IMG/VR virus record: IMGVR_UViG_3300042914_003231
Coordinates: 64,001-80,155 of that record
Length of the DNA: 16,155 nt
Origin: a virus
Lineage: Duplodnaviria > Heunggongvirae > Uroviricota > Caudoviricetes
Reading direction: 5' to 3' (one strand)
Every line of letters starts with the position of its first letter. Positions within the stretch are counted from its first letter, which is position 1. Positions 1-16,155 of this stretch are shown here, in pieces. The position numbers and the translations under genes are program-made. The notes under the pieces were generated by a model. It saw only the letters and a program-made list of their open reading frames with translations, was not told the DNA's origin and did not search any database.

Positions 1-6
1 GGAAAG

Positions 7-1722
7 ATGTTTGTTAAAGATGGTCAAGTATTTCCTAACTACATGCAACAAGAAGGTGGTGCTTATGATCCAGGTAATGCTGGAACCTATCCTGTCCTTG
101 ATTTTGGTGGACTAAAATCTATCATAGATGCTACAGCTAAGAATATGAAGAAATCTTATGGTGGAGATCTTACTGAGCAAGGTGGTAATCAAGATTTCAA
201 GAAACAATACCGTGCTACTTTTGATAACTACATTAAGCAGAATACTTACAATGCTATGATTGATCAAGAGCACCAGGCTATGCTGAATGAGTTTCAAAAC
301 ATGCCTTATGCTCAAGCTGGAAAACAAGTTGGAAATTTAGGATACAAAGTTCCGGTAAACACACAGAGAGAAGCTTTAGAAAAGCAATTAGCTGAAAAAC
401 AAAATCAGCAACAAACTTTATTTGGTAGTCTTGCTGATATGTATGCTCCTTCTGTTAATAGAAAACAGATGAGTGTGTTTGGAAGTCTTTTCCCAGCAAA
501 CTTTACAAGAGGATATGAATTTAGTAATGCTGATTATGCTCGCTTAAAAAAGATGGGTGATCAAGGTCAAATTACAGGCATTACAGAAAACTACGGACCT
601 TTAGCTCGAATGCTGGGTAAAACTGGTAGAAGAATGTTTGGCCCTAAGTCTGTTACTATCGGGATGATGGGTCCGGGATCCACTTCCGATCAACAGCAGT
701 CTATTCAAAATGTAGGTGCAGGTGCCTATGATAATCCTTTAGAAGGAATGGATCAAGGACAATTGTTCAAAGATTACAATAAAGGAGTTACTCCTGTGGG
801 AAAACAACGCGCTGATTTCATGTCTTCTAAATTAAAAAACCCTATGGGTCCACAAATAGATCCTTGGACTGAAATGATGAATGCTGCACCAGAAGTTACT
901 CCTCCAGCAGTAAATGCTGAGCCAGATCGTTCCAATATGCAATTTGTAGCAGGTCAATGGATACAAAAAGCTTTTGGTGGAGCCTATCAACAAGGTGGTA
1001 ATCCTATATCTTATTCAGAGGTGAATCTTAATAGAAAATATTCAGGTCAAGAAGATCTTTGGAAATATGCTCCAGGAGCATTCAATTTTTTAGCTCAAGG
1101 TATTGAGTCTAGACATGATACTCCTGAAATGAAAGCAGCTCAGCTGGCTTTAATGACTCCAGGATCTGATATGGGACCTTTCCAATCTGTACCTGCAACT
1201 GGTAGAAGAATGGGAGACTATGATACTAACTCAGGAATGTTCAGACCTAACCAAATGATACCTATACAATTTCCAGGCTATGCTCAGTGGGGTGGATTTA
1301 ATACAATGCAAAGTGGCGGCAGTAAATCTAAGACTGAAATTGATCAATTAAAGAATAGATTTAATGTATTGGATAAAGCTTTATATGGTAATAATAAGCA
1401 ATATATTAAACAATTAGCTGGATCTAAGAATCAAGCAAAAAGAGAAGCAGATTCTATACAGCAAGTATTAAGTGATTATTATGAAAATAGAAATCCAACA
1501 GTTCCTGAAGGCTCTACTTGGGATCAATTTAAACAAGGATTTTCACAAGGTATTGATATGTGGATGCCTAATCAAAATACTTGGGATCAATTTAAACAAG
1601 GATTTACTTCTGCATATAAACAAGAAGGTGGAGTTTATGAGGAAGGAGAAGAAATAGATCTTTCACCAGAAAAAATAGCTGAGTTAAGAGCTCAGGGTTA
1701 TGAAATAGAAGAACTAGATTAA
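7..1722 (+). CDS. Putative virion cargo (internal/ejected) protein, Gln/Gly/Met-rich, with five QxGG motifs and a C-terminal DLSPE-x4-LRAQGYE tag
   Basis: 571-aa ORF ending TAA at 1720-1722, with no Cys and low-complexity composition. The frame is open back to position 1 (gga aag atg), so the true start may lie upstream of the window. Confidence 0.7.
   Translation: MFVKDGQVFPNYMQQEGGAYDPGNAGTYPVLDFGGLKSIIDATAKNMKKSYGGDLTEQGGNQDFKKQYRATFDNYIKQNTYNAMIDQEHQAMLNEFQNMPYAQAGKQVGNLGYKVPVNTQREALEKQLAEKQNQQQTLFGSLADMYAPSVNRKQMSVFGSLFPANFTRGYEFSNADYARLKKMGDQGQITGITENYGPLARMLGKTGRRMFGPKSVTIGMMGPGSTSDQQQSIQNVGAGAYDNPLEGMDQGQLFKDYNKGVTPVGKQRADFMSSKLKNPMGPQIDPWTEMMNAAPEVTPPAVNAEPDRSNMQFVAGQWIQKAFGGAYQQGGNPISYSEVNLNRKYSGQEDLWKYAPGAFNFLAQGIESRHDTPEMKAAQLALMTPGSDMGPFQSVPATGRRMGDYDTNSGMFRPNQMIPIQFPGYAQWGGFNTMQSGGSKSKTEIDQLKNRFNVLDKALYGNNKQYIKQLAGSKNQAKREADSIQQVLSDYYENRNPTVPEGSTWDQFKQGFSQGIDMWMPNQNTWDQFKQGFTSAYKQEGGVYEEGEEIDLSPEKIAELRAQGYEIEELD
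1515..1605 (+). repeat. Exact 28-bp direct repeat (TACTTGGGATCAATTTAAACAAGGATTT) at 1515-1542 and 1578-1605, period 63 bp, encoding TWDQFKQGF twice
   Basis: Read directly from the sequence; in-frame duplication with 21-codon spacing inside ORF1. Confidence 0.95.
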
Positions 1723-1724
1723 CA

Positions 1725-4628
1725 ATGGCAAGAGCAAGAATAGTAAAACTTCCAAAGGCCTTATCAGGACTAGAAGTAAAAATGGCACCGGGATTGTATG
1801 GTACTAATGGTAACCGTCAGTTCTCTCTACCTACTCAGATAGATAGTCAAAAGTATTCTGAACCGGATACTGAAGTGAGAAACACTCTTAAACCGGTTCC
1901 TAGAGAAATGGCTAACCTTGAAGCAGAAAAGGGTGAGACAGCTGTTGTAAATATTGATGGCTTCCCAGCTCATTTTAATATTGGAGGTAAGAGACACTCA
2001 GAAGGTGGTACTCCTTTAAACTTACCTGATAACTCTTTTATTTTTTCTGATACTGCTAAGATGAAGATCAAGGATCCTGAGATCCTTAAACAGTTTGGTA
2101 TGGCTATGAAATCTGGAGGATTCACTCCTGCAGATATTGCTAAGAAGTACCAGATCAATAACTATCGCAAGATGCTTGCTGATCCGGAGACTGATGATCT
2201 ACAAAGAAAGACCGCGGAAATGATGATTGCCAACTACAATGAAAAGTTGGCTAAGCTTGCTTTAGCTCAAGAGTCAAAGAAAGGATTCCCACAAGGTATT
2301 CCAGCTATTGCAATTCCTTACATTGATGCTCACAATATTGATACAAGTCAATATGCCCCTACTCAAGCACAACAAGAAGATCCTAATGCTAACATGGGTG
2401 TTGCACGTTATGGTGCAAATGTTATTGCCGGCTGGAACAAAATGCAAGTTGGTGGACCTATAGGTGATCAAACATGGGCACAAGATGCTACAATCGGATC
2501 TAGTTATAACTTATATCTGGAAGCTTTAGCATCTAAGGATCCAAAAAAAATGCGTGATATAGGTAAAAAAATCTCTGATAGAGATATTGAAGGTTTTGGA
2601 TGGTGGCCAGGTTCTAGACAAGGTAAACTTCATGACCTGGGTTATGATCTTATGAGACAAGCTACTCTTACAGAAAGAGCTCAGGCTCCTAAAGAACTTA
2701 CAGAAGAAGAGTTAGATATAAATACTCGAAATAAAGCTGCTGAACTATTTACTAAGCTATACAATCTGAAAAGAAAAGCTACTGAGGCTAAAGACTTCGA
2801 TGCTGCTTATAACTATGATGTTGAGCTTGAAAACTTACATAAGCTTCACCCTGATTACAAAGCTGCAGGTTTCATGAGAAAGAAACAATCTGCAAAACAA
2901 GAGATAAACAGTAAAGACTTTTATTCTCCTGCTCAACCTGCTATCTATTATACAGAAACTGAAACTAATAAAGTAAATGATCTGTATGACAAATATCTTA
3001 AACCTAAAGAAGTTGCTAAAGCTCCAACTACTTCTGCAAAACCGCAAGAGAAAAAAGTAGAAGCTAAGCCTCTTCCAGCTACAACTCCTACATTAAATAC
3101 TTCTCCTAACAGTGTTCTTGTAAAACCGGTTAAAACTAAAAAAGATACTACTATTTCTAAAGAAGCTCTTGATGCATTAGCTCAAACCGATCCGGATGCA
3201 TATGATAAGTTGATGAAAGATTTTAAAGTAAAAGAATATCAAGGTGGTGGATCTACAGCAACAGCCGTAAGAAAAATGGAGCCTGGTAAAATTAAACCAG
3301 AATACTCTATGGAAGAAGCATATGGTCCTAAGGGTGTTGCTAGACAGAATGAGTTCAGACGACATATGGGACTTCCAGAGTTACCATCTAATGCTACTAA
3401 AGCTCAAATACAAGCCGGAGCAGGAGAACTTCAGAAATATGCTATTGAAAACTATCCTGAACTGGTTAGTGATTATATGACTGAAAAAAATCCTAAGCCT
3501 AATAAAAAGCTTGAGGATGTGTTACGATCAAAAGGTTATAAGCCAACCAATGCTGAATTAAAAAAAGCTATGGCTGAAGGTAATATTTCACCAGAAGATA
3601 TCCGTAGTGCTTACAAAGATGATCAGTGGTGGTTCCGTGCTATCAAGGCTGATAGAAAGAAAGTATCTCCTGAAGAATATGAGAAGTTAATGAAAAGACC
3701 GGGATCTATCAAACAAGGGGAAAACATGTACTACAGTGAAGATCCGTCTAAGCCTTGGGAATACACTACTTACTACACAGATAAACCAGCTCCTAAAGTT
3801 GAGCTTAAACCTGAAGTAAAGCAAGAAGTAGAGCCTGCAAAACAAGAGGTAAAAAGAAATCCTATTGTGAAGGGTAATCCTCCTACTTATGCTCCTTGGT
3901 GGTTACAAGATATTATTGGTACCGCTGGTGCTTTTGGTGACTTATCGCGTGTTAAGAAATATCAACCATGGCAAGCTACTCCTCAAGCATTTTTACCACA
4001 GGCTACTTTTTATGATCCAACGCGTGAGTTAGCAGCTAATGCTGAGCAAGCTAATATTGCTAGTCAATTCCATCAAGCTTTCACTGGTCCTAAGACCGGT
4101 CAAATGGCAGGAGTTCAAGGTCAAGCTATGAAGAATGCTGCAGATATCATGGGTAAATACAACAACCTAAATGTTGGAGTAGCTAATCAGTTAGAACAAG
4201 AAAGAGCTCAAATCATGAATGCTGCTTCCCAGAACCGTGCTAACTTAAGTACACAGCTTTGGGATAAATACAATATCGCCAACCAACAGTTTGACAATGC
4301 TAAAAATCAGGCTCGCGAGCAGTTAAGAAAGCATGTGATCAGTGCCGTAACCAACCGAGCCAAAACTCAAGCCCTAAACACTCTTTACCCTAACTATTAC
4401 ACAGATCCTTCTCTAGGAGGCTTTTTAAACTTTGCTCCAGGATATGATCCAAAACCTGTTGGAAAAGGAGAAGACTATATCGATAAGGTATGGAACAAGG
4501 CTAAGATAATGGACCCGAATGATCCTGCCGGTATGTTTAAAACTATTTACTCTAAAAAGGGAGACTCTGAGGATGATGTGAATCCTGAGTTGAAACAGTA
4601 TTTGAGAGCACAAGGCTATCAGGAGTAA
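1725..4628 (+). CDS. Putative virion cargo protein: conserved N-terminal EAEKGE...HSEGG...FIFSD module, variable middle with Pro/Lys/Thr linkers, Gln/Asn/Ala-rich helical C-terminal region, C-terminal DVNPE-x4-LRAQGYQ tag
   Basis: 967-aa ORF starting 2 nt after the ORF1 stop, ending TAA, with no Cys. The function is inferred from context and motif recall. Confidence 0.7.
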   Translation: MARARIVKLPKALSGLEVKMAPGLYGTNGNRQFSLPTQIDSQKYSEPDTEVRNTLKPVPREMANLEAEKGETAVVNIDGFPAHFNIGGKRHSEGGTPLNLPDNSFIFSDTAKMKIKDPEILKQFGMAMKSGGFTPADIAKKYQINNYRKMLADPETDDLQRKTAEMMIANYNEKLAKLALAQESKKGFPQGIPAIAIPYIDAHNIDTSQYAPTQAQQEDPNANMGVARYGANVIAGWNKMQVGGPIGDQTWAQDATIGSSYNLYLEALASKDPKKMRDIGKKISDRDIEGFGWWPGSRQGKLHDLGYDLMRQATLTERAQAPKELTEEELDINTRNKAAELFTKLYNLKRKATEAKDFDAAYNYDVELENLHKLHPDYKAAGFMRKKQSAKQEINSKDFYSPAQPAIYYTETETNKVNDLYDKYLKPKEVAKAPTTSAKPQEKKVEAKPLPATTPTLNTSPNSVLVKPVKTKKDTTISKEALDALAQTDPDAYDKLMKDFKVKEYQGGGSTATAVRKMEPGKIKPEYSMEEAYGPKGVARQNEFRRHMGLPELPSNATKAQIQAGAGELQKYAIENYPELVSDYMTEKNPKPNKKLEDVLRSKGYKPTNAELKKAMAEGNISPEDIRSAYKDDQWWFRAIKADRKKVSPEEYEKLMKRPGSIKQGENMYYSEDPSKPWEYTTYYTDKPAPKVELKPEVKQEVEPAKQEVKRNPIVKGNPPTYAPWWLQDIIGTAGAFGDLSRVKKYQPWQATPQAFLPQATFYDPTRELAANAEQANIASQFHQAFTGPKTGQMAGVQGQAMKNAADIMGKYNNLNVGVANQLEQERAQIMNAASQNRANLSTQLWDKYNIANQQFDNAKNQAREQLRKHVISAVTNRAKTQALNTLYPNYYTDPSLGGFLNFAPGYDPKPVGKGEDYIDKVWNKAKIMDPNDPAGMFKTIYSKKGDSEDDVNPELKQYLRAQGYQE

Positions 4629-4689
4629 ACTTTAAATGTGTATTAAACTTTTAATATTTTATAGTATTTTTAAAGCATAAAACTTTACC
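4629..4689 (+). promoter_or_regulatory. Only substantial intergenic region; AT-rich candidate promoter/operator
   Basis: 61 nt containing the palindrome TATTAAA-CT-TTTAATA (4641-4656), three AAACTTT copies (4627, 4645, 4680), and TATTTTTA (4665-4672), a near match to the Bacteroidota -7 element TAnnTTTG. No clear -33 TTTG. Confidence 0.35.
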
Positions 4690-7485
4690 ATGGCAACATA
4701 CATTCCAGGGATGACTGACTATATACCTCAAGTTCAACCCTTTCAACCTGATCTTAACTTCTATGCTAATGTCATGCAGACAAAGCAAGGAAGATTTGAT
4801 AGTGCTAAAAGAAAGATCAATGAACTGTATGGTACATTGTTGAATTCCCCTATGAGTAGGGACAGCAATATCAAAAGAAGAGAAGAGTTTTTTAAGATAA
4901 TCGATCAAGATATAAAAAAGATCTCAGGCCTAGATTTGTCATTAGAACAAAATGTGGATCAAGCCATGAATGTGTTCTCTGGATTTTATGATGACAAGTA
5001 TATGGTTTCTGATATGGTTAAGACAAAGAACTATTTTAATGAGTTAGAGAAAGCTCAGAACTATAGAAACTGTAATAACCCAGAAAAATGTAATGGTCAG
5101 TACTGGGATGCTGGAGTACAAAAACTCCAGTATAAAATGGATGAATTTAAGAAGGTATCTGATAATGAATCTTTGAATTTTCAGATAGGTAGTTTTGATC
5201 CTTACTTTGACTGGAAGAAAGATGCCGCTAAGAAAGCTAAAGAACAGGGTTATGATGTAAAACAAGATACAGTATCTGGAAGATGGATTGTAAGAGATTC
5301 AAATGGAAAACTGGTTCAAGGAGGACTTGAAAACTTTTTTACATCTCTTTATGGAGATGACCCTCGAGTAAAAGCTAACTATGAAACGCAGGCTTATGTA
5401 ACAAGAAAAAATTATGCAGCTAGCAATGCTGCTCAATTTGGTTCTGAAGAAGAAGCTGAAAAGCAGTATATAACAAATCACTTTAACAAAGGCTTAGAAG
5501 AGTATCATAATACTCTTAATGCTGTTATTGATGGATACAATCAAGTAAGTAATACACTTACTAAGTTGGAAAGAAAAAAGAATGGTCCGGGCCTTACTCC
5601 ACAAGAAAAAGAAGCTTATACTTTAGCTACTCAGCAAAAACAGTATTTAGAAAAATCTAAAAGTACTGTTCAAGGAAGAATAGATGAGATTCAGAATAAC
5701 ATAAACACTGAAGACTTAAATAGCCTTAGAAGAAGAGTGGATCTTAGTGTAGCAGGAGCTTATGAAAAATCTGATATTGTAGGATTAGCTGAGTCTCTAG
5801 CTAATTTGAAAAAAGAACATACTCTTGAAGTTAATCCTTATGCTAAAATGTATGAAGAGTTTGGTCTTCAAAAGAAGTTAGCTGATCATAATGCTCTGCT
5901 TGATGTATGGAAAATGAAGCATGAGTTTGGGTATAAGGTAAAGCTTGAAGAATTAAAGAATGCTAAAAAAACAGGACAGCTTCCTGGAGCAATCCCTGGT
6001 ACAGAAGGCTATGAAATAAAAGGAGCTCCTTGGTCTAATGTTAAGGAGAACTTAGATGAAAACCCTTCTTTGATCTATGATCGAAACATACAAGAGAGAA
6101 ATGCTAAAATGGAATCTGCTTCTGCTTTAAGTAGTGGGGCTCTTTTACAATTAGTACAAGCTGCTCAAAATGCTTACAAAGCAAATCCTAATGAAAACAG
6201 TGGGGCTGCTTCTTTCTTATCTCAGTTTGGAAAAAATGCTGGTAATATAAAGACTATAGCTGAGTTGCAACAAGCAATAAAAGAAAATAAGCAAACTCCT
6301 ATTAGTCTGTTTAATGGTCTTGTATCTCAAGCTAGCATGAAACAGAATCCTACAGGTGATTATGATTGGGCCCGCGGAATACTTAACCAAAAAGGTGGTA
6401 TGATAGATCAAGTAAGATTTGCTAATGAAGCTTTTCATGCTACTCTTAATGATCAGTTAAACACTAACAAGAGAATTGCAAAAACTATAGAAGGTACTTT
6501 AAGTACTGAGAATCAGGTAGCAAGACATGCTGGATTACTTGTATCAAACTCCGGCTTTTTAGAAAGTGAAGATACTTTTGTTAAGAAATACATTAAAGCA
6601 AATGCTGATAGAAATATCATGGCATCACCTTCAAAAGCAAAGGAAGCTTATCAAGCTCTTACCAAGCAGTTCTTTTCTACTTATAATTCAGCTGCTGAAA
6701 CTAGTTTAAGACAAGGTGAAGGTTTAGCCGGATCAGGAATGATATCTGCTACACCTATCCAATTCACAGGATTAGATCTTTTGGATAAAGGAACTAATAA
6801 GGTTGTAACAGATATCATCTCTACAACAAATCAAGCATTAAATACTCAAGGTACTACAACAGTTGTGATTGGAGACCCGTCTAAAGAAAGCTTAAAGCAA
6901 GAGAGTAATACTGCTGTCGGAGACTTTTTAACTTGGTATCTTAACCAAGCAGACCTTACTGATAAAAGTAAAAATAGATCTTTCTCTGCTGTTGTAAGTA
7001 ATATTGCAGGAGAAGATCCTACTAAAGCAGCTATCACATTTAAAGGTATTGATCCTGATGTGATCAAACAATATACTGGTTCTGAAAAAGACCCTAAGGT
7101 TTTCTTTGGGCAAGACTTATCAAAAGGGATCACTGTATTCTTTGATAAGACTCAGCAAATAAATCCTTTTGAAAAACCCATGAGTGACCAAGAAACCATT
7201 TTAAGATTAAATGGTCATACTAAGTCAACCGGTTTTGAAGATCTGGCTGGTACAGTAGATTGGAGCTATGATAAAAATACAAATAGAGTTAGAGCTGTAC
7301 ATCATCCTGCTTATTTTGATAAAGGTAAGTGGGTACCTGCAGGAACCCCTCAGGTTCTTGTTGATAAAGATATGGCCAATCTAGATGAGTCTGTTAAGTA
7401 TGTAAACCAAACTTTAGAAAATCTGGCTAAAGTAAATATGCAAATAGGTGCTAACATTGCTAATGCAACAAGAGGACAACAATAA
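4690..7485 (+). CDS. Putative virion internal/ejection protein, largely helical
   Basis: 931-aa ORF (MATYIPGMTDYIPQVQPFQPDLNFY...) ending TAA. Its only two Cys form C-x5-C at 5071-5091. No catalytic motif recognised. Confidence 0.65.
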   Translation: MATYIPGMTDYIPQVQPFQPDLNFYANVMQTKQGRFDSAKRKINELYGTLLNSPMSRDSNIKRREEFFKIIDQDIKKISGLDLSLEQNVDQAMNVFSGFYDDKYMVSDMVKTKNYFNELEKAQNYRNCNNPEKCNGQYWDAGVQKLQYKMDEFKKVSDNESLNFQIGSFDPYFDWKKDAAKKAKEQGYDVKQDTVSGRWIVRDSNGKLVQGGLENFFTSLYGDDPRVKANYETQAYVTRKNYAASNAAQFGSEEEAEKQYITNHFNKGLEEYHNTLNAVIDGYNQVSNTLTKLERKKNGPGLTPQEKEAYTLATQQKQYLEKSKSTVQGRIDEIQNNINTEDLNSLRRRVDLSVAGAYEKSDIVGLAESLANLKKEHTLEVNPYAKMYEEFGLQKKLADHNALLDVWKMKHEFGYKVKLEELKNAKKTGQLPGAIPGTEGYEIKGAPWSNVKENLDENPSLIYDRNIQERNAKMESASALSSGALLQLVQAAQNAYKANPNENSGAASFLSQFGKNAGNIKTIAELQQAIKENKQTPISLFNGLVSQASMKQNPTGDYDWARGILNQKGGMIDQVRFANEAFHATLNDQLNTNKRIAKTIEGTLSTENQVARHAGLLVSNSGFLESEDTFVKKYIKANADRNIMASPSKAKEAYQALTKQFFSTYNSAAETSLRQGEGLAGSGMISATPIQFTGLDLLDKGTNKVVTDIISTTNQALNTQGTTTVVIGDPSKESLKQESNTAVGDFLTWYLNQADLTDKSKNRSFSAVVSNIAGEDPTKAAITFKGIDPDVIKQYTGSEKDPKVFFGQDLSKGITVFFDKTQQINPFEKPMSDQETILRLNGHTKSTGFEDLAGTVDWSYDKNTNRVRAVHHPAYFDKGKWVPAGTPQVLVDKDMANLDESVKYVNQTLENLAKVNMQIGANIANATRGQQ

Positions 7486-7486
7486 C

Positions 7487-10400
7487 ATGGCTGAAGAAAT
7501 ACCTACACCCGAACCTAATCTTTCTGAGTTAGAAGCAGACTTAAATGCTACATTAAGCACACCTGGCTATGGCTTAAGTGATACTCTTCCTGCTAAACCA
7601 GAGGCTATTGATATCTATAAAAACAATGTAGGTAATCCTATTACAGGGAGTGAGCCACAAGGAAAGCTTGCTACATTTAGTAGTAAAGATTATGCTGCTG
7701 CATTAGGAAATGCAACATTGCAACAAACAAGTATTGCTGAAGAAGATCCTTATATTAAAATGCGTCCCTTCACTTATAGTGGAGACTATGATGCAGCTAA
7801 CTTCGATCGATACTATGGAACCAAGGCTTATAAGACTTTAGGTTTCTCTCCTTACCGTGACAATGATGCTCTCTACAATCAGAAGATGACTTTTGGTGAT
7901 CAGTTTGTAAGAGCAGCTGGTCAGTGGGATAACTTGATGGCTACCGGGTTTATGTCTGGAGTAAAATCGTGGGGAACAATGTTTACTGATCCCTTAGCTC
8001 CAGATCTTGACTCTGCAAGAGATATGAAAAGATCTATGGCCATTGGTAATATCAGTACAGGTGGTGTCGGAGCTTTTGTAGGAAATACCTTCTTAAACTC
8101 TGCATACAGTATTGGTATAGGTCTAGAATTTCTAGCTGAAGAAGCTGCACTAGCTGCAGCAACTGCTTTTACCGGTGGTATGGCAGGTGAAGTAACTCTT
8201 CCTGCAATGGCAGCTCGTGGAGGTTTTTTTGCCAGACAGCTTGGTAAGATTGGTGAAATGGGTGCAAAAGTAGGTGGTAACACAGAACGTTTTGCTAAAG
8301 CAGCTGAAGTTGCCGGACAATTTGCTAAGAATCTTAAAAAGGCTCCTAGTGGATTAGATGATATGTCTTCTGCAAGACAATTCTTTAGTAAAGTAGCTAA
8401 TGGAACCTTTGATCTGATTAATCCTTTAGAATCAACGGCTGGAGCTTTAAAGAGTCAAAGATATGCTAATGATCTAGCTAAGACTGTAGGAACAGCCGGA
8501 GCTTTCATGGATGATATTATAAGAATTAAAACAGCTGCTTCAGAAGCTCAGTTAGAAGGAGGTATGGTAAAGATCGATGCGACTGAAAGACTCATTGATC
8601 AATACCGTGAGATGAATGGTAAAGATCCTGAAGGAGATGATTTAAAAAAGATTGAAGACTTAGCAAGTATTGAGGCCCGTAGAACAACTCTGTACAATTT
8701 CCCGGCTATCATGACTACAAATAAGTTGTTGTTCTCAACAATCTTATATCCATTAAAGAAGACTCTTGGTACAGCTAATGCACGCATGCTTGAAGATGTA
8801 GTAGCTGAAGACGGTATGAAAGCTTTAGCTAAAGATCCTTTTTCAGTTATTGGAAGAGGTACAAAAGCGCAGATGAAAGCTGCTGCTAAGTCTTTAGCTA
8901 AACCTGCTTTGTATGGTCAGTATGGTATGGCTTATTTAAAAGCCAATGTTGCAGAAGGTCTTCAAGAAAACATTCAAGAAGCTATTTCAGCGGGAGCTAT
9001 TAATCATGCTCTAGCTGTACAAAAAGATCCGGGAATGGCTGCTTATCGTGGCTATATGGGATATTTAATGGATGGCTTGAAAGAACAAGTATCTGCTCAA
9101 GGTGCTGAGACATTTGCTTCTGGATTCTTAATGGGCATGTTTACACAACCTATTATGACAGCTCCTTCATGGGCTGTATCAAAAGGTATTGAGAAATTTA
9201 AGAATAAAGAAGCTCGCGATAAGGCTAAAGCAGAAAGAGATGAGGCTTTGAAAAAAGAAGCAGATACTCTTAATGAGATGGCTAATAATGATATTAACTA
9301 TTGGGCCCCAGATCTAGGAACTGCTGTAAAGAATGGAGCATTAAGCAATGATCTTATGTCAGCTGCATCTATAGGAGATGAAAAAGCTTCTAAAGATGCT
9401 AAGTTCAGAATAGAGTTTAATCATATTGAAACTGCTATTAACTCAGGTAAGTTTGAAGATCTTATGACTAAGCTTGCTGACTACAAGAATCTTACTCCTG
9501 AAGAAGCATTTGAAGCATTCCAAAGATATGGTATTGGTATTAATACTAAAGAAGAAGCTATACAAGCCTTAGAAAAAATTGATGGTGTTATCGAAAGAGC
9601 CAGATCAATCAAAGATAAATATCAGGCTGTAGCACAAGATTTTCCTAATCCCTTCAACCCTTCAGGACTAAAACCTGGAACTGATGATTACAATGCTGTA
9701 GTAGATTCCCATATGGCATGGAGAGAAGCACAAAAGAATCTTGTATTTGCAACAGCAGAGTTTGAAAACTATTCTACCCGATTAGCTCAAATGACTGATG
9801 CATTCAGTAATCTAGCATCTCCTATTGCTAAAGCTGATACTCAAAGACTTTTATCTACTATGAATATGGTTTCTCTTAAAAAAGAGATTGCTACTTTAAA
9901 GCAAGAACTAAAAGGTCTGAATCAAGTAGAGGCTCCAGCTTCAGAGAGAAAAGAAAAAGAAAAAAACTTAGAGCTTCTTGAGAAGTTCTATGATGCTATA
10001 ACTGTAGCTCAAGAAACTATTAAAAAAGAAAACCTTACAGATAAGGTTGAGAAGCAAGTAGTATATCAAGATGCAAAAGAAGCCTATCAAAAGTATCTAG
10101 GTCATATTGCTAAAAAGAATGACTCTATCTTGTTTAACAAGACTACAGATAAAGCTTTTGATTTGTTGACTGATACTTTAGAAATGAAGTCCGAGCAATA
10201 CAATCTTGCTAAAACTATCAATGTTCTTAATAACCCTAATGGTTTCTTAAAGCTTCAGAAGAGACTTCAAGAAGCTTTCAATCAGGAAAGATTAGAGAAG
10301 CAGGAAAGAATTCTAGAAAACCTGGAAGCTTTCCTTACAACAAAAGATGAGAACCAGATAATTCAAACCTTAGGAAAACTTGGTGTAAAGATTCCTGAAG

Positions 10401-12829
10401 ACTTTCTTGCTGAGTATAAGGATGCTCTTAAAAATAAGAAGCCATTACCGAGCCCAGAGTATTATATAAACCCGGCTACTCAAGAGAAGATCACAAAAGA
10501 AACCGGTGGACAAGAGTTTGAAAAAGCAGCTGAATTATGGGATGCCTTCCGCGCATGGATGCATTTGACCAATGATATTAAAGATACAGCAGAAATAGAG
10601 AAATGGGCTTCTCTTATTGACAGTGCTACATCTGAAAAAGAGCTTGATTCTATAATGGATCAGCTTGATAAAGCTGGAGCTATGACTCCGGATTTTCTAA
10701 CAGATATCTCTAAAAAGAGAGAATTACTACAGAAAGGTGGAGAAGAAGCTATCATTAAAGCATTCAATGATTATAATCCAGGACTAAAAGATAGGCTTAC
10801 TCAGATGTATCATCAGGCCAAAGTAGATGGAAAGATCAAAGAAAGTACTTCATTGGCTCAGTTCCTAGCTACCGATCCAGATGCTATTATACAGATCCGA
10901 TCGGCTGAAAGTGTAGAGAAACTTGTAGATAAACCTGTAGTAACTCCTGAACCGGTTAAGAAAGAACCTATAAAAGGATATACCCAGCAAATGCCAGGTG
11001 GAAGAACTGTTACTTTTAATCCTGATCTTAGAACCTGGGAATTCAGAAATCGATCAGGTAAACTTATCACCAATAAGAAAACAGTAGAGAAGCTTGTAGA
11101 TGATCTTTCTAGAATGCCAGGTATTGTAAAGACCTGGTGGACAAGATTCTTAACAGATGCTGAGAGAGATAATGTAAGAGCTGCTTTTGAAGATTATGCT
11201 AACAAAGCAAGAGCTGGTATGGAAGCTAAAGGTCCGGAAGGATTTGCTCCTACACTAGAATTTATGTTGCTTGAAGCGTTGCAAGGTGCTAAATTTGATA
11301 TTAACTCTGATGTTGCAACAAATGTAACAGATGCTGGCGGAGCATGGTTTGGAGCTAAAGGTTATAAAAGTGTGGATGCTTTTGTCAATAGTGGGTTAGC
11401 TGATATTTATTCAGCTTACGGTATGCAACTTCCTGATGATACACAAGACCTTATTAATGATGTCTATAATATAATCAATGAATATCCGGCTGGGATTAAA
11501 GATAAAGATCTTAAATCTTATAAAGAAAGGGTAAATCCTAATGAAGAGTTATTAGATCTAAAGAAAGATTTTGCTAAAGAGCATGGTCTGGATATAGAAA
11601 AAGCATATTTTAAGATTGAGTCAGAAAACTTATTAAACTATAGTGAAGCTCCTCCTGCAGATGTGGATGTAACTGTGCCTCCGGAAGAAGTAACTCTTGT
11701 TCCTGAGAAAGATTGGAAACCTATCACAAATGCTAGTGCTCTTAAGAAAGGAGATGTCCTTATAGATAAAGCTGGTAAAGAATATGTATTCATAGGATAC
11801 GATCCTGGTTATGAACCTTCTTTTTCTCCTGATGATAATGTTACTTTCCCGGGAGAACCAGAAAGTATCTCTACAAAAGATAGAGAAGGTAAGACTGTAG
11901 ACTTTTATGGTCCGCAGATATTAACTTTAGCTATGAAGCCTTTTGCTAAAAGAGAAGTAGTAGCTACAGAAGTATTACCTGTAGAACAGGCAGTTAAGAC
12001 TGTAAACAAAGACTATGAAGGTAAAGTGATCTTTATCACACCGGGATCAGGTAAAACTGATCTTGCCAAAAATAATGAAGATGTGATAGATGCTGATAAT
12101 TTACTTTTAGAAGCTATACAAGAGCTTAATCCTATTTATCCTATAAGTGATCAATTATCGGCTGCTCAAAATATTTATGATGCTATTCGATATGCAGGTA
12201 TAGATAAGAAAAAGCTATATACTATAGGTGCTCAAAAAATAAAAGAGATGGCGGCAAAAGGTAAGACTGTTATAACCAGTAGTGTAGCACTCATGAAGCA
12301 TGCTGATATTATTATGAATCAAACCAATCCGGAGTTTATTATAGAAAAGTATGATCGAAACAAGGAACTTACAGCCGACACAGGAGATGCTTTAGTAATA
12401 GGGATCTATCAGGATATTCAAGATGCTATTAAAAAATCTCCAGCAGAACTTTTAGGAACTATTACTGCACAAGAAGTAACGGAAGTTCCTGAGATCACTA
12501 TTGAAGATATTAACAAGAACTTGACAGCTGATAACTTGGCTTTGGCTCAAGAAAGAGGTTATGATGCTATTTACAAAAATGAAAGATATGCTATTACCAA
12601 AGTTGAGCAAAATTCTGTATCTTTAAAAGCTCTGGATGGTTCTACTCAAACAGTGGCACCTTCAGAAATTACAGCTGTAACAGAAAAGGAAAATGTGGTA
12701 ATTACATCAGAGGAGAATAAAGACTTTAAGGATAATAGTAAAAAGCTAGAGACCGGAGCCTTTGATGTTGATTTTGATGCAGACAACCTTGATGATGCAG
12801 CAAATGCTATTAGAAAAAATATTTGTTAA
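7487..12829 (+). CDS. Giant (about 1780 aa) putative ejection/polyvalent protein: N-terminal Gly/Ala-rich membrane-inserting region, central coiled coils, C-terminal SH3-like and P-loop modules, terminal Cys
   Basis: The ORF track starts at GTG 7448, overlapping ORF3. ATG 7487 (MAEEIPTPEP) lies 1 nt after the ORF3 stop, matches the TAA-(1-3 nt)-ATGG junctions seen elsewhere, and is preferred. Ends ...IRKNIC-TAA. Confidence 0.75.
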   Translation: MAEEIPTPEPNLSELEADLNATLSTPGYGLSDTLPAKPEAIDIYKNNVGNPITGSEPQGKLATFSSKDYAAALGNATLQQTSIAEEDPYIKMRPFTYSGDYDAANFDRYYGTKAYKTLGFSPYRDNDALYNQKMTFGDQFVRAAGQWDNLMATGFMSGVKSWGTMFTDPLAPDLDSARDMKRSMAIGNISTGGVGAFVGNTFLNSAYSIGIGLEFLAEEAALAAATAFTGGMAGEVTLPAMAARGGFFARQLGKIGEMGAKVGGNTERFAKAAEVAGQFAKNLKKAPSGLDDMSSARQFFSKVANGTFDLINPLESTAGALKSQRYANDLAKTVGTAGAFMDDIIRIKTAASEAQLEGGMVKIDATERLIDQYREMNGKDPEGDDLKKIEDLASIEARRTTLYNFPAIMTTNKLLFSTILYPLKKTLGTANARMLEDVVAEDGMKALAKDPFSVIGRGTKAQMKAAAKSLAKPALYGQYGMAYLKANVAEGLQENIQEAISAGAINHALAVQKDPGMAAYRGYMGYLMDGLKEQVSAQGAETFASGFLMGMFTQPIMTAPSWAVSKGIEKFKNKEARDKAKAERDEALKKEADTLNEMANNDINYWAPDLGTAVKNGALSNDLMSAASIGDEKASKDAKFRIEFNHIETAINSGKFEDLMTKLADYKNLTPEEAFEAFQRYGIGINTKEEAIQALEKIDGVIERARSIKDKYQAVAQDFPNPFNPSGLKPGTDDYNAVVDSHMAWREAQKNLVFATAEFENYSTRLAQMTDAFSNLASPIAKADTQRLLSTMNMVSLKKEIATLKQELKGLNQVEAPASERKEKEKNLELLEKFYDAITVAQETIKKENLTDKVEKQVVYQDAKEAYQKYLGHIAKKNDSILFNKTTDKAFDLLTDTLEMKSEQYNLAKTINVLNNPNGFLKLQKRLQEAFNQERLEKQERILENLEAFLTTKDENQIIQTLGKLGVKIPEDFLAEYKDALKNKKPLPSPEYYINPATQEKITKETGGQEFEKAAELWDAFRAWMHLTNDIKDTAEIEKWASLIDSATSEKELDSIMDQLDKAGAMTPDFLTDISKKRELLQKGGEEAIIKAFNDYNPGLKDRLTQMYHQAKVDGKIKESTSLAQFLATDPDAIIQIRSAESVEKLVDKPVVTPEPVKKEPIKGYTQQMPGGRTVTFNPDLRTWEFRNRSGKLITNKKTVEKLVDDLSRMPGIVKTWWTRFLTDAERDNVRAAFEDYANKARAGMEAKGPEGFAPTLEFMLLEALQGAKFDINSDVATNVTDAGGAWFGAKGYKSVDAFVNSGLADIYSAYGMQLPDDTQDLINDVYNIINEYPAGIKDKDLKSYKERVNPNEELLDLKKDFAKEHGLDIEKAYFKIESENLLNYSEAPPADVDVTVPPEEVTLVPEKDWKPITNASALKKGDVLIDKAGKEYVFIGYDPGYEPSFSPDDNVTFPGEPESISTKDREGKTVDFYGPQILTLAMKPFAKREVVATEVLPVEQAVKTVNKDYEGKVIFITPGSGKTDLAKNNEDVIDADNLLLEAIQELNPIYPISDQLSAAQNIYDAIRYAGIDKKKLYTIGAQKIKEMAAKGKTVITSSVALMKHADIIMNQTNPEFIIEKYDRNKELTADTGDALVIGIYQDIQDAIKKSPAELLGTITAQEVTEVPEITIEDINKNLTADNLALAQERGYDAIYKNERYAITKVEQNSVSLKALDGSTQTVAPSEITAVTEKENVVITSEENKDFKDNSKKLETGAFDVDFDADNLDDAANAIRKNIC
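12020..12450 (+). other. P-loop NTPase / NMP-kinase-like domain within ORF4
   Basis: Hydrophobic strand VIFI, then ITPGSGKT (12035-12058; Walker A with the first Gly replaced), then VIDAD and later the strands KTVITSS and ADIIM, consistent with a small kinase-type alpha/beta fold. The end coordinate is approximate. Confidence 0.55.
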
Positions 12830-12832
12830 GCC

Positions 12833-15800
12833 ATGGGAATTTGTAATTTAGATCAGAATAAAGATCTTGCTAAAGCACTAGCCACTTACTTAAACATCAG
12901 CATTAAGAAAAATCTGGAAGGTGAAACACCTTTCAAACTTGTTAGTGTAATGAGAGATGTTTATAAAATTGCTTATGAGAAAGATCAGGATGTAAACAAG
13001 GCATTAGGTGTAGCAGGAGCTATGCCAAAATTATTTTTACAGCTTCTCAATAAGAAGCCAGAGTATTTAATGAAGCTTGCTGATAAAGGCTTCAAGATAG
13101 ATCCTATTATTGATTTCAATAAGAAGATTGAAACTTCTGAAAAACCTCTTGATGTTGTTAGTGAGTCTATCAAAGGCATTGCCGTACCTACAGTTACACA
13201 AGCTATTCAAAATAGTACAAGTGTAGAACCTATTAGCAAGCCTATTATAAAAGAGGCTGCTAATGTTCCTACCTATACTGATAAGTCTTTAGTAAAAGAT
13301 ACTTTCAAAGCTACTACCGGATTCAGTGTAGTAAAGAGTAAAGAAGGAAAGTTTGAGATTGATCAAGCCAATCCGGCAAAAGCTGCTTCTTATGCAGCAT
13401 TGCAGAATCTACTAATGATCCAAACAGAGGATCCTACATTTGAAAATGTTAAGTATGATGGTCATACTGGTTTCAAATTGAAAGCTGCTATTGAAGCATC
13501 TCTTCCTGCAAACAGTATATACAGTGAAGTAAAAACAAGTACATCTGTAGTATTAGCTATTACAGATAATCAAGGTAATTATTTATACTTCGATGATGCA
13601 GGTAAGATAAGCAATCCTGAGAATGGTAAAGTAGCTTATTTTTCCTTAGAAGCAATCACTAAAGAAAAGATAGCAAAAAAGGTAGAGCTTGGTTTAGAAA
13701 AATACAAAGTTGATTTTGCTGAAAAAAGTGGAGAGAATGCACAATCACTTGAAGATGCTTTAGAGCAAGAAGAAAAGAGACTTACTAAGAAGTTTAATCA
13801 ACAAGCTAAGCTTATTGAAAGCATAAGACTTAAGACTAATATGAATGAGAAGGTAATGCTTGATATTACCGGTGGAGAGGTTGGTTTTGTAGATGATAGA
13901 GCAGGTAAGAATAACTTATCTGAGTTTAACTTAAAGCCTGAAGAGATTAGAAGTATTGGTGCTGCATTTACTGATTACAAAGAAGGCAATCGTAATGTAA
14001 GAGTGCCTGCTGTAAAGTTTGCTAACTATGATAAGTTGATCGGCTTAAAAGGCTTATCTATAAAAATAGCAAGTCCTGAATTGTTTGATAGTCTTATTAA
14101 CTTATTAGTTGATGATCTTGTAAAAGATGATGGTAGTCCGGTTTCTCCTCAAGAGAAGATTGATTTGTTCAAGCAGTATGCTCATGTAAACAAATTCCTA
14201 TTATCGGCCGGTGAGAATGCTTTAAATATCTTTATTGGTAAAGAACTTGTATCTCTTGAGAACAAGGAAGAAGCTAAGAAAGTAATATTAGACTTCTTAG
14301 CAAAGAATGCATATCATACCTTCATCAAAACCTTAGATGGTAGTTATACCAGCTTTAACATTGCTGATGGTGTGTTATCTGTTAAACAAGAACCTTCTTA
14401 TGTAGACTTCATAAGTAAATATTTGGTACCGCGTGTTGGTATGGATATCAACACAAAGAGACCTATGATAAACAATGGTTACTTTACTTTTGAAGTAAGT
14501 AATCAACAAGAGGTTGCTGCTGAAAAAGCTAAGGAAGCAGTAAAAGAAGCTAAAGAAGAAATTAAAAAGTCTAAGTATAATACTGATGACTTAGCCGATG
14601 CTTTAGAAAGATCTAAGCTTATTGCTTCACGATCTACTCCAGAGCAAGAAGCTGCAGGTGACAAGTGGTTAGCAGAAACTGCTTTACTAAAAGTAGAAAT
14701 TGATGGTAAGCCGGTTATTACTTTAGCTGATCTTAGAAATATTGTTAACTCAGATGCCTTTGCTACTTTTGCAAAAGCAACTATGACATTGCATGAGGGT
14801 GGTAATTCTACCCATATGTATCATGAAGCTTGGCATGCTTTTAGTCAGATCTTCCTAAAAAAAGGAGAAAGAGATCATCTTTATACTGAAGCAGCTAAGT
14901 TAAACCAAAGCTTTACTTACATTAAGAAAGTACCAGGGCCTGGTGGAAACACTATTAAAAAGGTTTCTGTAAAGCTTAATACTTTAGATCCAAAGAATCC
15001 TTCAGATAGAAAGATCCTAGAAGAGTTTATAGCAGAAGAGTTCCGTGTATTTGCTATGAACAAAGGTGCATTTAAGACTACACCTACTGGCTTTAAGGCT
15101 ATCTTCAAAAAGATATGGGCCCTATTAAAAGCCTTGTTTAAAGGTACAGTACCTATAGATGTTTATTCTACTCCGGGATCATCTGTTTTTTCTGAGATGT
15201 TTAATGCATTATACAATGCTAAAAATGTTGAAGATCTTAATATGTTCCAACCAGCTATTCAGAATGCTGAGTTTGGTACTCTTAATACAGGATTGATCAA
15301 TGAGCTTTCTGAACTAGATATGGAGCTTATCTCAAGATCTATAGATGGTATTATTTCTAATGTTACTACTGATCTTATTATAAATAAAGGTAAGCCGGGA
15401 GCAGCAATGCAGATATTTGCTACTACAAAAGCTTTAGACTTCCTTTACAATGTAAGTATCAAGACTGCTTTAAGCGATCGATTAGAAGAACTAGTAGCAG
15501 AAAAGAAAGCTAATGAAAGTAAGTGGAATACTATTGAGTTAGATTATCATCTTAACAATATCAATATCTTACAGAAAGCCTTAGATAACTTCGGTGATGT
15601 AAAAAGTATCCTGGAGAATAAAACTAAGGATAATAGCATTACAGCATATCATTTAAAGAATAGTGCTTTTGCTAGTAGAATAAAAGAAGCTATTGTTGAT
15701 CCCACAGATATTTCAGAAACAAGTGCCGCGGATATATTAGCTAGAAATGACAAGCAAGCAAACAGTGCTGAATCTGAAAAGCTTGCTACAGCTTCAGCTG

Positions 15801-16155
15801 TTTATATCATGCAAAGTCTTGTTCAACAAGAATACAATGATAACAAAACAAGGATCACAGATAGACTTAACCAGTTAGGGTTTCCTCAAACTATAGAGTT
15901 TAAACCATTCTGGAACTTCCTAATGAACAAAGTAGGAGGTGAACAAAATGAGGTTGATCTATACAACAAACTTGTTGAGTTAAAAGATAAGAAAGTAACT
16001 CCACTTATCCAGCAATTGTTAGATAAGGTTGGAGATCCGGCCGAGAGAATGACTGCTAGTAAGATATCTGCAGACATATGGTTAGGATTAGTAAGATCTA
16101 TGAACATGACTCGTATAGATCTACACAACAATGTTTTTGAGGTTACTAAGGATGA
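12833..16155 (+). CDS. Giant virion protein (3'-partial, more than 1107 aa) containing a zincin metallopeptidase domain; likely part of the crAss-like virion RNA polymerase locus
   Basis: Hand translation from ATG 12833 (MGICNLDQNKDLAKALATYLN...) shows no stop through 16155. It is absent from the ORF track, presumably because no stop falls in the window. HEAWH at 14822-14836 and EEFIAEEFR at 15020-15046. Confidence 0.85.
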   Translation, partial: MGICNLDQNKDLAKALATYLNISIKKNLEGETPFKLVSVMRDVYKIAYEKDQDVNKALGVAGAMPKLFLQLLNKKPEYLMKLADKGFKIDPIIDFNKKIETSEKPLDVVSESIKGIAVPTVTQAIQNSTSVEPISKPIIKEAANVPTYTDKSLVKDTFKATTGFSVVKSKEGKFEIDQANPAKAASYAALQNLLMIQTEDPTFENVKYDGHTGFKLKAAIEASLPANSIYSEVKTSTSVVLAITDNQGNYLYFDDAGKISNPENGKVAYFSLEAITKEKIAKKVELGLEKYKVDFAEKSGENAQSLEDALEQEEKRLTKKFNQQAKLIESIRLKTNMNEKVMLDITGGEVGFVDDRAGKNNLSEFNLKPEEIRSIGAAFTDYKEGNRNVRVPAVKFANYDKLIGLKGLSIKIASPELFDSLINLLVDDLVKDDGSPVSPQEKIDLFKQYAHVNKFLLSAGENALNIFIGKELVSLENKEEAKKVILDFLAKNAYHTFIKTLDGSYTSFNIADGVLSVKQEPSYVDFISKYLVPRVGMDINTKRPMINNGYFTFEVSNQQEVAAEKAKEAVKEAKEEIKKSKYNTDDLADALERSKLIASRSTPEQEAAGDKWLAETALLKVEIDGKPVITLADLRNIVNSDAFATFAKATMTLHEGGNSTHMYHEAWHAFSQIFLKKGERDHLYTEAAKLNQSFTYIKKVPGPGGNTIKKVSVKLNTLDPKNPSDRKILEEFIAEEFRVFAMNKGAFKTTPTGFKAIFKKIWALLKALFKGTVPIDVYSTPGSSVFSEMFNALYNAKNVEDLNMFQPAIQNAEFGTLNTGLINELSELDMELISRSIDGIISNVTTDLIINKGKPGAAMQIFATTKALDFLYNVSIKTALSDRLEELVAEKKANESKWNTIELDYHLNNINILQKALDNFGDVKSILENKTKDNSITAYHLKNSAFASRIKEAIVDPTDISETSAADILARNDKQANSAESEKLATASAVYIMQSLVQQEYNDNKTRITDRLNQLGFPQTIEFKPFWNFLMNKVGGEQNEVDLYNKLVELKDKKVTPLIQQLLDKVGDPAERMTASKISADIWLGLVRSMNMTRIDLHNNVFEVTKD
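14750..15150 (+). other. Zincin-like (HExxH) metallopeptidase domain, MPTase type as in phage polyvalent proteins
   Basis: Strand ATMTLH, then YHEAWHAFSQIFL (H664-E-x-x-H668), then the helix LEEFIAEEFR supplying a candidate third ligand (Glu730-Glu736), then an amphipathic helix FKKIWALLKALF. Domain boundaries are approximate. Confidence 0.8.

Follow-up and report, generated by a model that had tools for sequence, protein, structure and literature searches.

How crassviruses order and deliver the large proteins that they carry as cargo has been stated as an open question (PMC10172136). It is raised here by two adjoining genes in a window that comprises the final 16,155 nucleotides (nt) of an 80,155-nt viral contig (IMG/VR record IMGVR_UViG_3300042914_003231, positions 64,001 to 80,155). 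Judged by sequence, the contig belongs to a crAss-like phage far from cultured members, and the window represents its RNA-polymerase cargo block. The sole cysteine of open reading frame 4 (ORF4) is its last residue, and the sole cysteine in the visible part of the following ORF5, predicted from its homologues to be at full length a zincin and two-barrel RNA polymerase protein of roughly 3400 amino acids (aa), is residue 4. An earlier note on this DNA had pointed out this arrangement, which the sequence confirms, and had proposed that a disulfide or shared metal site tethers the two proteins head to tail as one ordered chain. Comparison with relatives indicates that facing terminal cysteines follow a real rule conserved across the order, and co-folding suggests that the ends carrying them dock specifically. 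These docking modules and a third chain protein are points beyond the earlier note.

Cysteines at facing protein ends

Given one cysteine per ORF, the chance of finding both at facing ends is ~2e-5, a value for which the sizes of the terminal intervals were picked after the data had been seen. The suspicion that chance placement is unlikely is borne out by homologues. Relatives were retrieved from IMG/VR with an alignment of the polymerase core, which yielded 160 loci; scans of IMG/VR with single proteins gave no matches. All 31 ORF4 homologues, at identities down to 23%, carry a cysteine within their last 0-5 residues, and in 29 of them it is the only one. Full-length ORF5 homologues (n=160) carry an N-terminal cysteine in 149 cases, a C-terminal one in 158 and both in 147, with internal cysteines at 0.012%. 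Large genes meet at 235 unique junctions across the 160 loci, and at 227 of these cysteine faces cysteine; internal cysteines number 44 in 765,650 residues (0.006%). The C-terminal cysteines paired with M-x(1-3)-C starts that had been anticipated, also for the downstream end of ORF5, were thus found in relatives, where the two residues are conserved and co-occur. Placement at facing ends is far beyond chance and, because homologues keep it, real rather than coincidental.

The rule extends to a third protein. ORF6, a protein of about 1115 aa, carries Cys4 as its sole cysteine in the two closest complete loci and lacks a C-terminal one; the chain order in relatives is ORF4 (tail cysteine), ORF5 (cysteine at both ends) and ORF6 (head cysteine only). 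The outer ends are free of it: the first member lacks an N-terminal cysteine, and the last member lacks a C-terminal one in 59 cases; for six last members that do carry one, the next gene is cysteine-headed or the edge of the locus is reached. Among the eight junctions without the pair, four are outside the chain ends, three (L120, L122 and L145) coincide with frameshift or stop lesions in the conserved polymerase, at which no Rfam intron was found, and in L068 the cysteine is displaced to about 18 residues from the end. Two head cysteines that seemed to be missing are accounted for by a mis-called start (P0062) and by truncation at a contig end (P0143); those of P0206, which lies 138 nt from a contig end and also lacks the C-terminal cysteine, and of P0153 have no assigned cause.

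Could the cysteine codons be a by-product of the DNA, created by overlapping stop and start codons, translational coupling or stop read-through? The two window genes share a reading frame across a gap of 3 nt, and in some ORF5/ORF6 pairs the cysteine codon is overlapped by the ATG that follows. Among relatives, however, frame and spacing vary: gap lengths run from -11 to 647 nt, each of the three frames is represented, TGT and TGC are both used, and the cysteine lies 0-9 residues from the end of the upstream protein and at residue 3-7 of the downstream head. The first gene of crAss001 and of DAC17 occupies the strand opposite to the other two, and the rule is kept between gp47 and gp50 of crAss001 even though they lie on opposite strands. 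Because the cysteines stay despite gene inversion, and gaps, frames and codons vary, the signal appears to reside in the protein and not in the DNA junction. Stop read-through was rejected on the same variation, and a DNA-level origin of any kind is barely credible.

Fusions and splits of the chain

Gene fusions and splits provide natural experiments on this rule. Proteins that fuse ORF4 and ORF5 (P0145, P0194 and L167) contain one cysteine only, the C-terminal one; a head domain could not be detected in them, and the gene that follows them is still cysteine-headed. Three independent fusions were counted, two with homology shown and one probable, since L074 and L091 are fusion-like in appearance, with ORF4 homology demonstrated for neither. 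Conversely, extra splits have five independent origins on the polymerase tree and generate members of 328-782 aa with cysteines at both ends, and pieces homologous to these extra members are fused without cysteine in other genomes. One of them, a 328-aa protein at L081:13420-14403, resembles an ADP-ribosyltransferase of the ART-PolyVal type and looks like plug-in cargo.

Several gene arrangements follow the rule: three separate genes in crAss001, phi14:2 and DAC17, the first two fused in cr1_1, cr56_1 and Fpv1, and the last two fused in crAss002 and CrAssphage ZA. The annotated starts of the latter two phages lie upstream of an internal Met-Ser-Cys, which we take as the real start. Starts at L175:9059-21334 and L176:9383-22120, as at L182:894-13649, look mis-called, and an internal or upstream Met-x-Cys fits the rule. 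Some gut members of the crAss-like phages have more internal cysteines. Lbo-JY46 (PP438436, L172:7355-20261) has a two-member cysteine chain whose second member lacks a C-terminal cysteine, and no DFDxD motif. It is a Leptolyngbya phage with a cyanobacterial host on record and encodes the closest capsid protein; a literature search for it yielded no paper. The chain genes of csAssE-Sib (L174:7401-16909) appear dispersed, with a 2208-aa protein bearing a C-terminal cysteine, an unrelated 192-aa gene and a 752-aa protein with cysteines at both ends.

Predicted docking of the cysteine-bearing ends

The first 115 aa of ORF5 form a confident helical domain in the predicted model, in which Cys4 is invariant and Leu6 and Pro65 are near-invariant. 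Co-folding of this head with the 45 C-terminal residues of ORF4, as the earlier note had suggested, gave a score of 0.89, compared with 0.00 for the best control. The mark applied is passed by 58 of 80 solved complexes and by 2 of 110 mismatched pairs, a calibration that is roughly applicable since alignments made for this analysis were used. Runs share at least 93% of contacts, and the predicted local distance difference test (pLDDT) of the partners is at least 85. In the predicted complex, the ORF4 tail packs its helix in antiparallel orientation against helix 1 of the ORF5 head, and the interface takes in head residues 1-7 and tail residues 39-45 and thus both cysteines. Fold searches with the head gave no clear solved match (best Z 5.8, root-mean-square deviation 4.1 over 96 aligned residues), which does not imply a novel fold.

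Evolutionary co-variation points in the same direction. Net charges of ORF4 tails and ORF5 heads are anticorrelated (Spearman rho -0.85, 74 pairs), also by independent contrasts (r -0.63; 50 opposite versus 18 same) and in disjoint sister pairs (21 versus 9), whereas non-cognate ends show 0.01 (ORF4 tail/ORF6 head) and -0.03 (ORF5 tail/ORF5 head). Profiles of the two head types and two tail types hardly cross-match, which could reflect orthogonal joints, although descent alone could give the same. Because the co-fold passes and charges co-vary, specific docking between the ORF4 tail and the ORF5 head is well supported by these models and comparisons, and a chain built from such docks is very probable.

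Features of the ORF4/ORF5 junction (positions in the window; aa, amino acids; nt, nucleotides)
Feature	Position	Strand	Remarks
ORF4	7487..12829	+	1780 aa, helical, first chain member, positional counterpart of crAss001 gp47
ORF4 C-terminal docking tail (predicted), last 45 aa	12692..12826	+	amphipathic helix, then cysteine at end
ORF4 Cys1780 (TGT)	12824..12826	+	sole cysteine of ORF4, last residue; kept in 31/31 homologues
ORF4 stop TAA (12827-12829) and 3-nt spacer GCC	12827..12832	+	junction sequence
ORF5, 5' part	12833..16153	+	ATG at 12833; first 1107 aa visible, then contig end
ORF5 N-terminal docking head (predicted), about 115 aa	12833..13177	+	seven-helix domain, pLDDT 92.6
ORF5 Cys4 (TGT)	12842..12844	+	sole cysteine in visible part; invariant in alignment A3
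HExxH zincin motif of ORF5, residue 664	14822..14836	+	conserved in homologues

A proposed disulfide-locked chain and its rivals

We propose that the cysteine pair is the lock of the docking joint and stands in for a peptide bond. The RNA-polymerase cargo would in effect be one long polyprotein, cut into 2-4 genes at variable places, with each cut leaving an upstream helical tail with a terminal cysteine and a downstream cognate head with a cysteine at residue 3-7. Different head and tail families at each joint would ensure that the members are packaged in the order ORF4-ORF5-ORF6 and in a 1:1:1 ratio. Once the virion has left the reducing cytoplasm, the docked cysteines would meet and oxidize to a disulfide, which would hold the chain together while proteins and docks partly unfold in the narrow tail, so that each member pulls its neighbour along or follows it; in the cytoplasm, thioredoxin or reductants of the glutathione type from the host would then free the members. 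Several features known from crAss001 bear on this scheme: its virions contain inter-subunit disulfides, its cargo must partly unfold at constrictions of <50 A, and the order of ejection is thought to rest on cargo interactions (all PMC10172136). A disulfide-locked chain is likely, and we assign a probability of about 0.6 to the lock being used in the virion or during ejection. In its fullest form, the proposal describes a redox-releasable covalent pseudo-polyprotein of 5,000-8,000 residues, made from separate genes, held by orthogonal cysteine-tipped docks, threaded in fixed order and open to new cargo, such as an ADP-ribosyltransferase module, inserted via a head and a tail; we give this version even odds.

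Various points count against this proposal. As regards the putative disulfide, the cysteine pair is outside the 25 best contacts listed, and the co-fold output comes without a sulfur-sulfur distance. At the second joint (ORF5 tail/ORF6 head), charge co-variation is weak (r -0.34, signs 27/28). A faint trend (r -0.20) is also seen for a control segment that precedes the ORF4 end by 100 residues. Since the cargo is packed in the reducing cytoplasm, the bond would have to be oxidized afterwards, within the closed capsid, a step difficult to envisage for gut phages under anoxic conditions. No phage oxidoreductase was found and a thioredoxin search of the genome was empty, an absence weakened by a genome completeness of 67%. 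Finally, that the chain proteins are virion cargo in this phage is probable by homology, on the basis that presence in the virion and ejection of the cargo proteins were demonstrated for crAss001 and phi14:2 (PMC10172136, 10.1101/2020.03.07.982082).

The oxidation problem would vanish if the same docking chain used its cysteine pair to bind zinc or iron, together with acidic side chains or in a four-cysteine site resembling the Rad50 hook that joins two joints and could bundle parallel chains. Such a site would work in the cytoplasm without an oxidant, and the conservation, fusion and docking data fit it equally. Further ligands are, however, scarce: a second cysteine within 8 residues occurs in 0 of 443 ends, histidine lies that close in none of 100 ORF4 tails and in 9 of 105 ORF5 heads, and the head alignment has no conserved His, Asp or Glu; these figures leave room for a site shared between two joints. 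The part of the earlier note that called for a specific link between the ORF4 tail and the ORF5 head in an ordered chain stands, by the cysteine rule, co-folding and charge co-variation, whereas its metal variant appears less likely than a disulfide, and we consider it unlikely in absolute terms. Somewhat less probable again is that the docks assemble and order the complex while the disulfide is made only later, by the Dsb system of the host periplasm during transit or after ejection, and would stabilize a trans-envelope ejectosome or tether the polymerase to it. Cysteine suppression in ejected proteins has been ascribed to periplasmic oxidation during passage (PMC11445570), and the virion polymerase of N4 was modelled as remaining membrane-tethered (PMC13434306). 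Against this, the polymerase and the downstream member are both in the chain and should finish in the cytoplasm, and the pair occurs at every joint and not at the first alone.

We find it improbable that the terminal cysteines are independent tags, for instance packaging signals, portal or capsid attachment points, modification sites or a means of ORF5 self-cyclization, that link no neighbours. Terminal motifs are common capsid-targeting signals, as in the internal proteins of T4, and ORF5 has cysteines at both ends. The outer chain ends, however, lack them, and the number of cysteines drops by exactly two upon fusion and rises by exactly two upon a split; moreover, charges co-vary between ORF4 tail and ORF5 head and not between the two ends of ORF5, and the co-fold passes.

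The disulfide-locked chain also differs in one respect from what the earlier note had envisaged, namely that a channel protein is ejected first. ORF4 offers no support for such a role: it has no 19-residue window above 1.4 hydropathy, that is, no segment of transmembrane strength, and residues 81-1000 have no Foldseek match, although the model is of modest confidence and fold novelty is not implied. The presumed channel proteins of crAss001 are gp45 and gp46 (PMC10172136), and since these and their positional counterparts upstream of ORF4 carry no terminal cysteine, the idea of a leading channel is unsupported.

Comparison with known systems

The closest counterpart is the Crassvirales RNA polymerase (RNAP) cargo block (crAss001 gp47-gp50-gp49; phi14:2 g067-g066-g065), which likewise consists of giant cysteine-poor genes after the muzzle and cargo genes and shares the DFDxD and zincin motifs, variable fusion and the same terminal cysteine rule. 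Its gp66 in phi14:2 is a virion RNAP whose termini are unmodelled in the published structure (10.1101/2020.03.07.982082). Unlike in crAss001 and phi14:2, zincin and polymerase are here united in a single protein of 3400 aa, whose head forms a helical domain of its own. While the cargo block is known, we found the cysteine-tipped link described in no paper: neither terminal cysteines nor an inter-protein link are mentioned in PMC10172136, the gp66 preprint (10.1101/2020.03.07.982082), a Crassvirales review, the Schitoviridae papers or a wider literature search, for which subscription literature and the Nature version of the gp66 work were mostly outside reach. The ejection operon of Schitoviridae (N4, DEV) likewise features an ejected giant polymerase, of a class different from the crAss-like one, and strong cysteine suppression; there, cysteines are essentially absent and stray ones were put down to errors (PMC11445570), whereas here exactly one occupies each facing end.

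Similar workings are found outside phages. In polyketide synthases and nonribosomal peptide synthetases, short C-terminal helices bind the N-terminal dock of the polypeptide that follows, the order is determined by orthogonal dock classes, and docks vanish upon module fusion; these docks are non-covalent, have no terminal cysteine pair and pass substrates. The joints described here work in a similar manner, with a covalent lock proposed, and do not appear to be of the same family; no Pfam, PDB sequence or fold match to such docks was obtained, in searches that are weak for a small helical domain. Terminal cysteines that join separately made chains are also known from von Willebrand factor and mucins, which form end-to-end disulfide polymers of the head-head and tail-tail type, homopolymers from the secretory pathway, and from split inteins, which need a cysteine at position 1 and a His-Asn end. 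A split intein was rejected for the present junction: the downstream cysteine is at residue 3-7, the upstream partner ends in cysteine, and there is no intein family match.

For two cultured phages, the rule offers a residue-level candidate answer to the question of cargo order, with the pairs gp47 C2339-gp50 C5 and gp50 C2404-gp49 C5 in crAss001 and likewise in phi14:2. A cysteine-dock chain would account for the occurrence of both fused and split versions of the block in different genomes, and for its persistence through gene inversion. The rule can further serve as an annotation aid for chain members and true start codons and, if the proposal is true, the docks would be a naturally occurring plug-in system by which proteins can be delivered into bacteria.

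Phage identity and neighbouring genes

Terminase, portal and capsid match crAss-type PHROG families, and the capsid protein is 22-28% identical to those of crAss-like phages, with Lbo-JY46 and csAssE-Sib as the best matches. Close relatives are metagenomic, and no GenBank record is close to the phage. PHROG and Pfam searches with ORF1-5 returned no useful family, and ORF5 matched nothing among GenBank phages by tblastn and nothing in the PDB by sequence. By position alone, ORF1-5 come after a 1789-aa gene in the place of the muzzle. The ORF4 start, ATG at 7487, is common to homologues.

Homologues of ORF5 are 3000-5300 aa long, with the zincin HExxH near residue 670 and DFDxD near 2250. D[FY]DxD occurs in 159 of 160 full-length homologues, including those 68-71% identical to ORF5, whose own motif would lie beyond the contig end. 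Some (P0041-P0045, P0052-P0055, P0060 and P0064) have variable inserts between a fixed head and tail, which precomputed Pfam assignments describe as helicase-like, 2OG-Fe(II) oxygenase, NADAR and ART-PolyVal.

ORF1 (window 1-1722) begins upstream of the window, measures 777 aa in the genome and has a CxxC at 85-88; its conserved C-terminal acidic motif is present in L001, L002, L010, L011 and Lbo-JY46. Outside the window, the structural genes at G000 44720-55014 are very cysteine-rich (122 cysteines in 1414 aa), in contrast to the cysteine-free cargo. CG is scarce in the window (1-16155; 151 occurrences, 43 of them within CCGG). In ORF3, C128 and C134 (5071-5091) form a conserved Cx5C pair, also found in L001, L002 and L005, which is possibly an intramolecular disulfide outside the chain; crAss001 gp45 and phi14:2 gp80 have internal cysteine pairs 8-9 apart.

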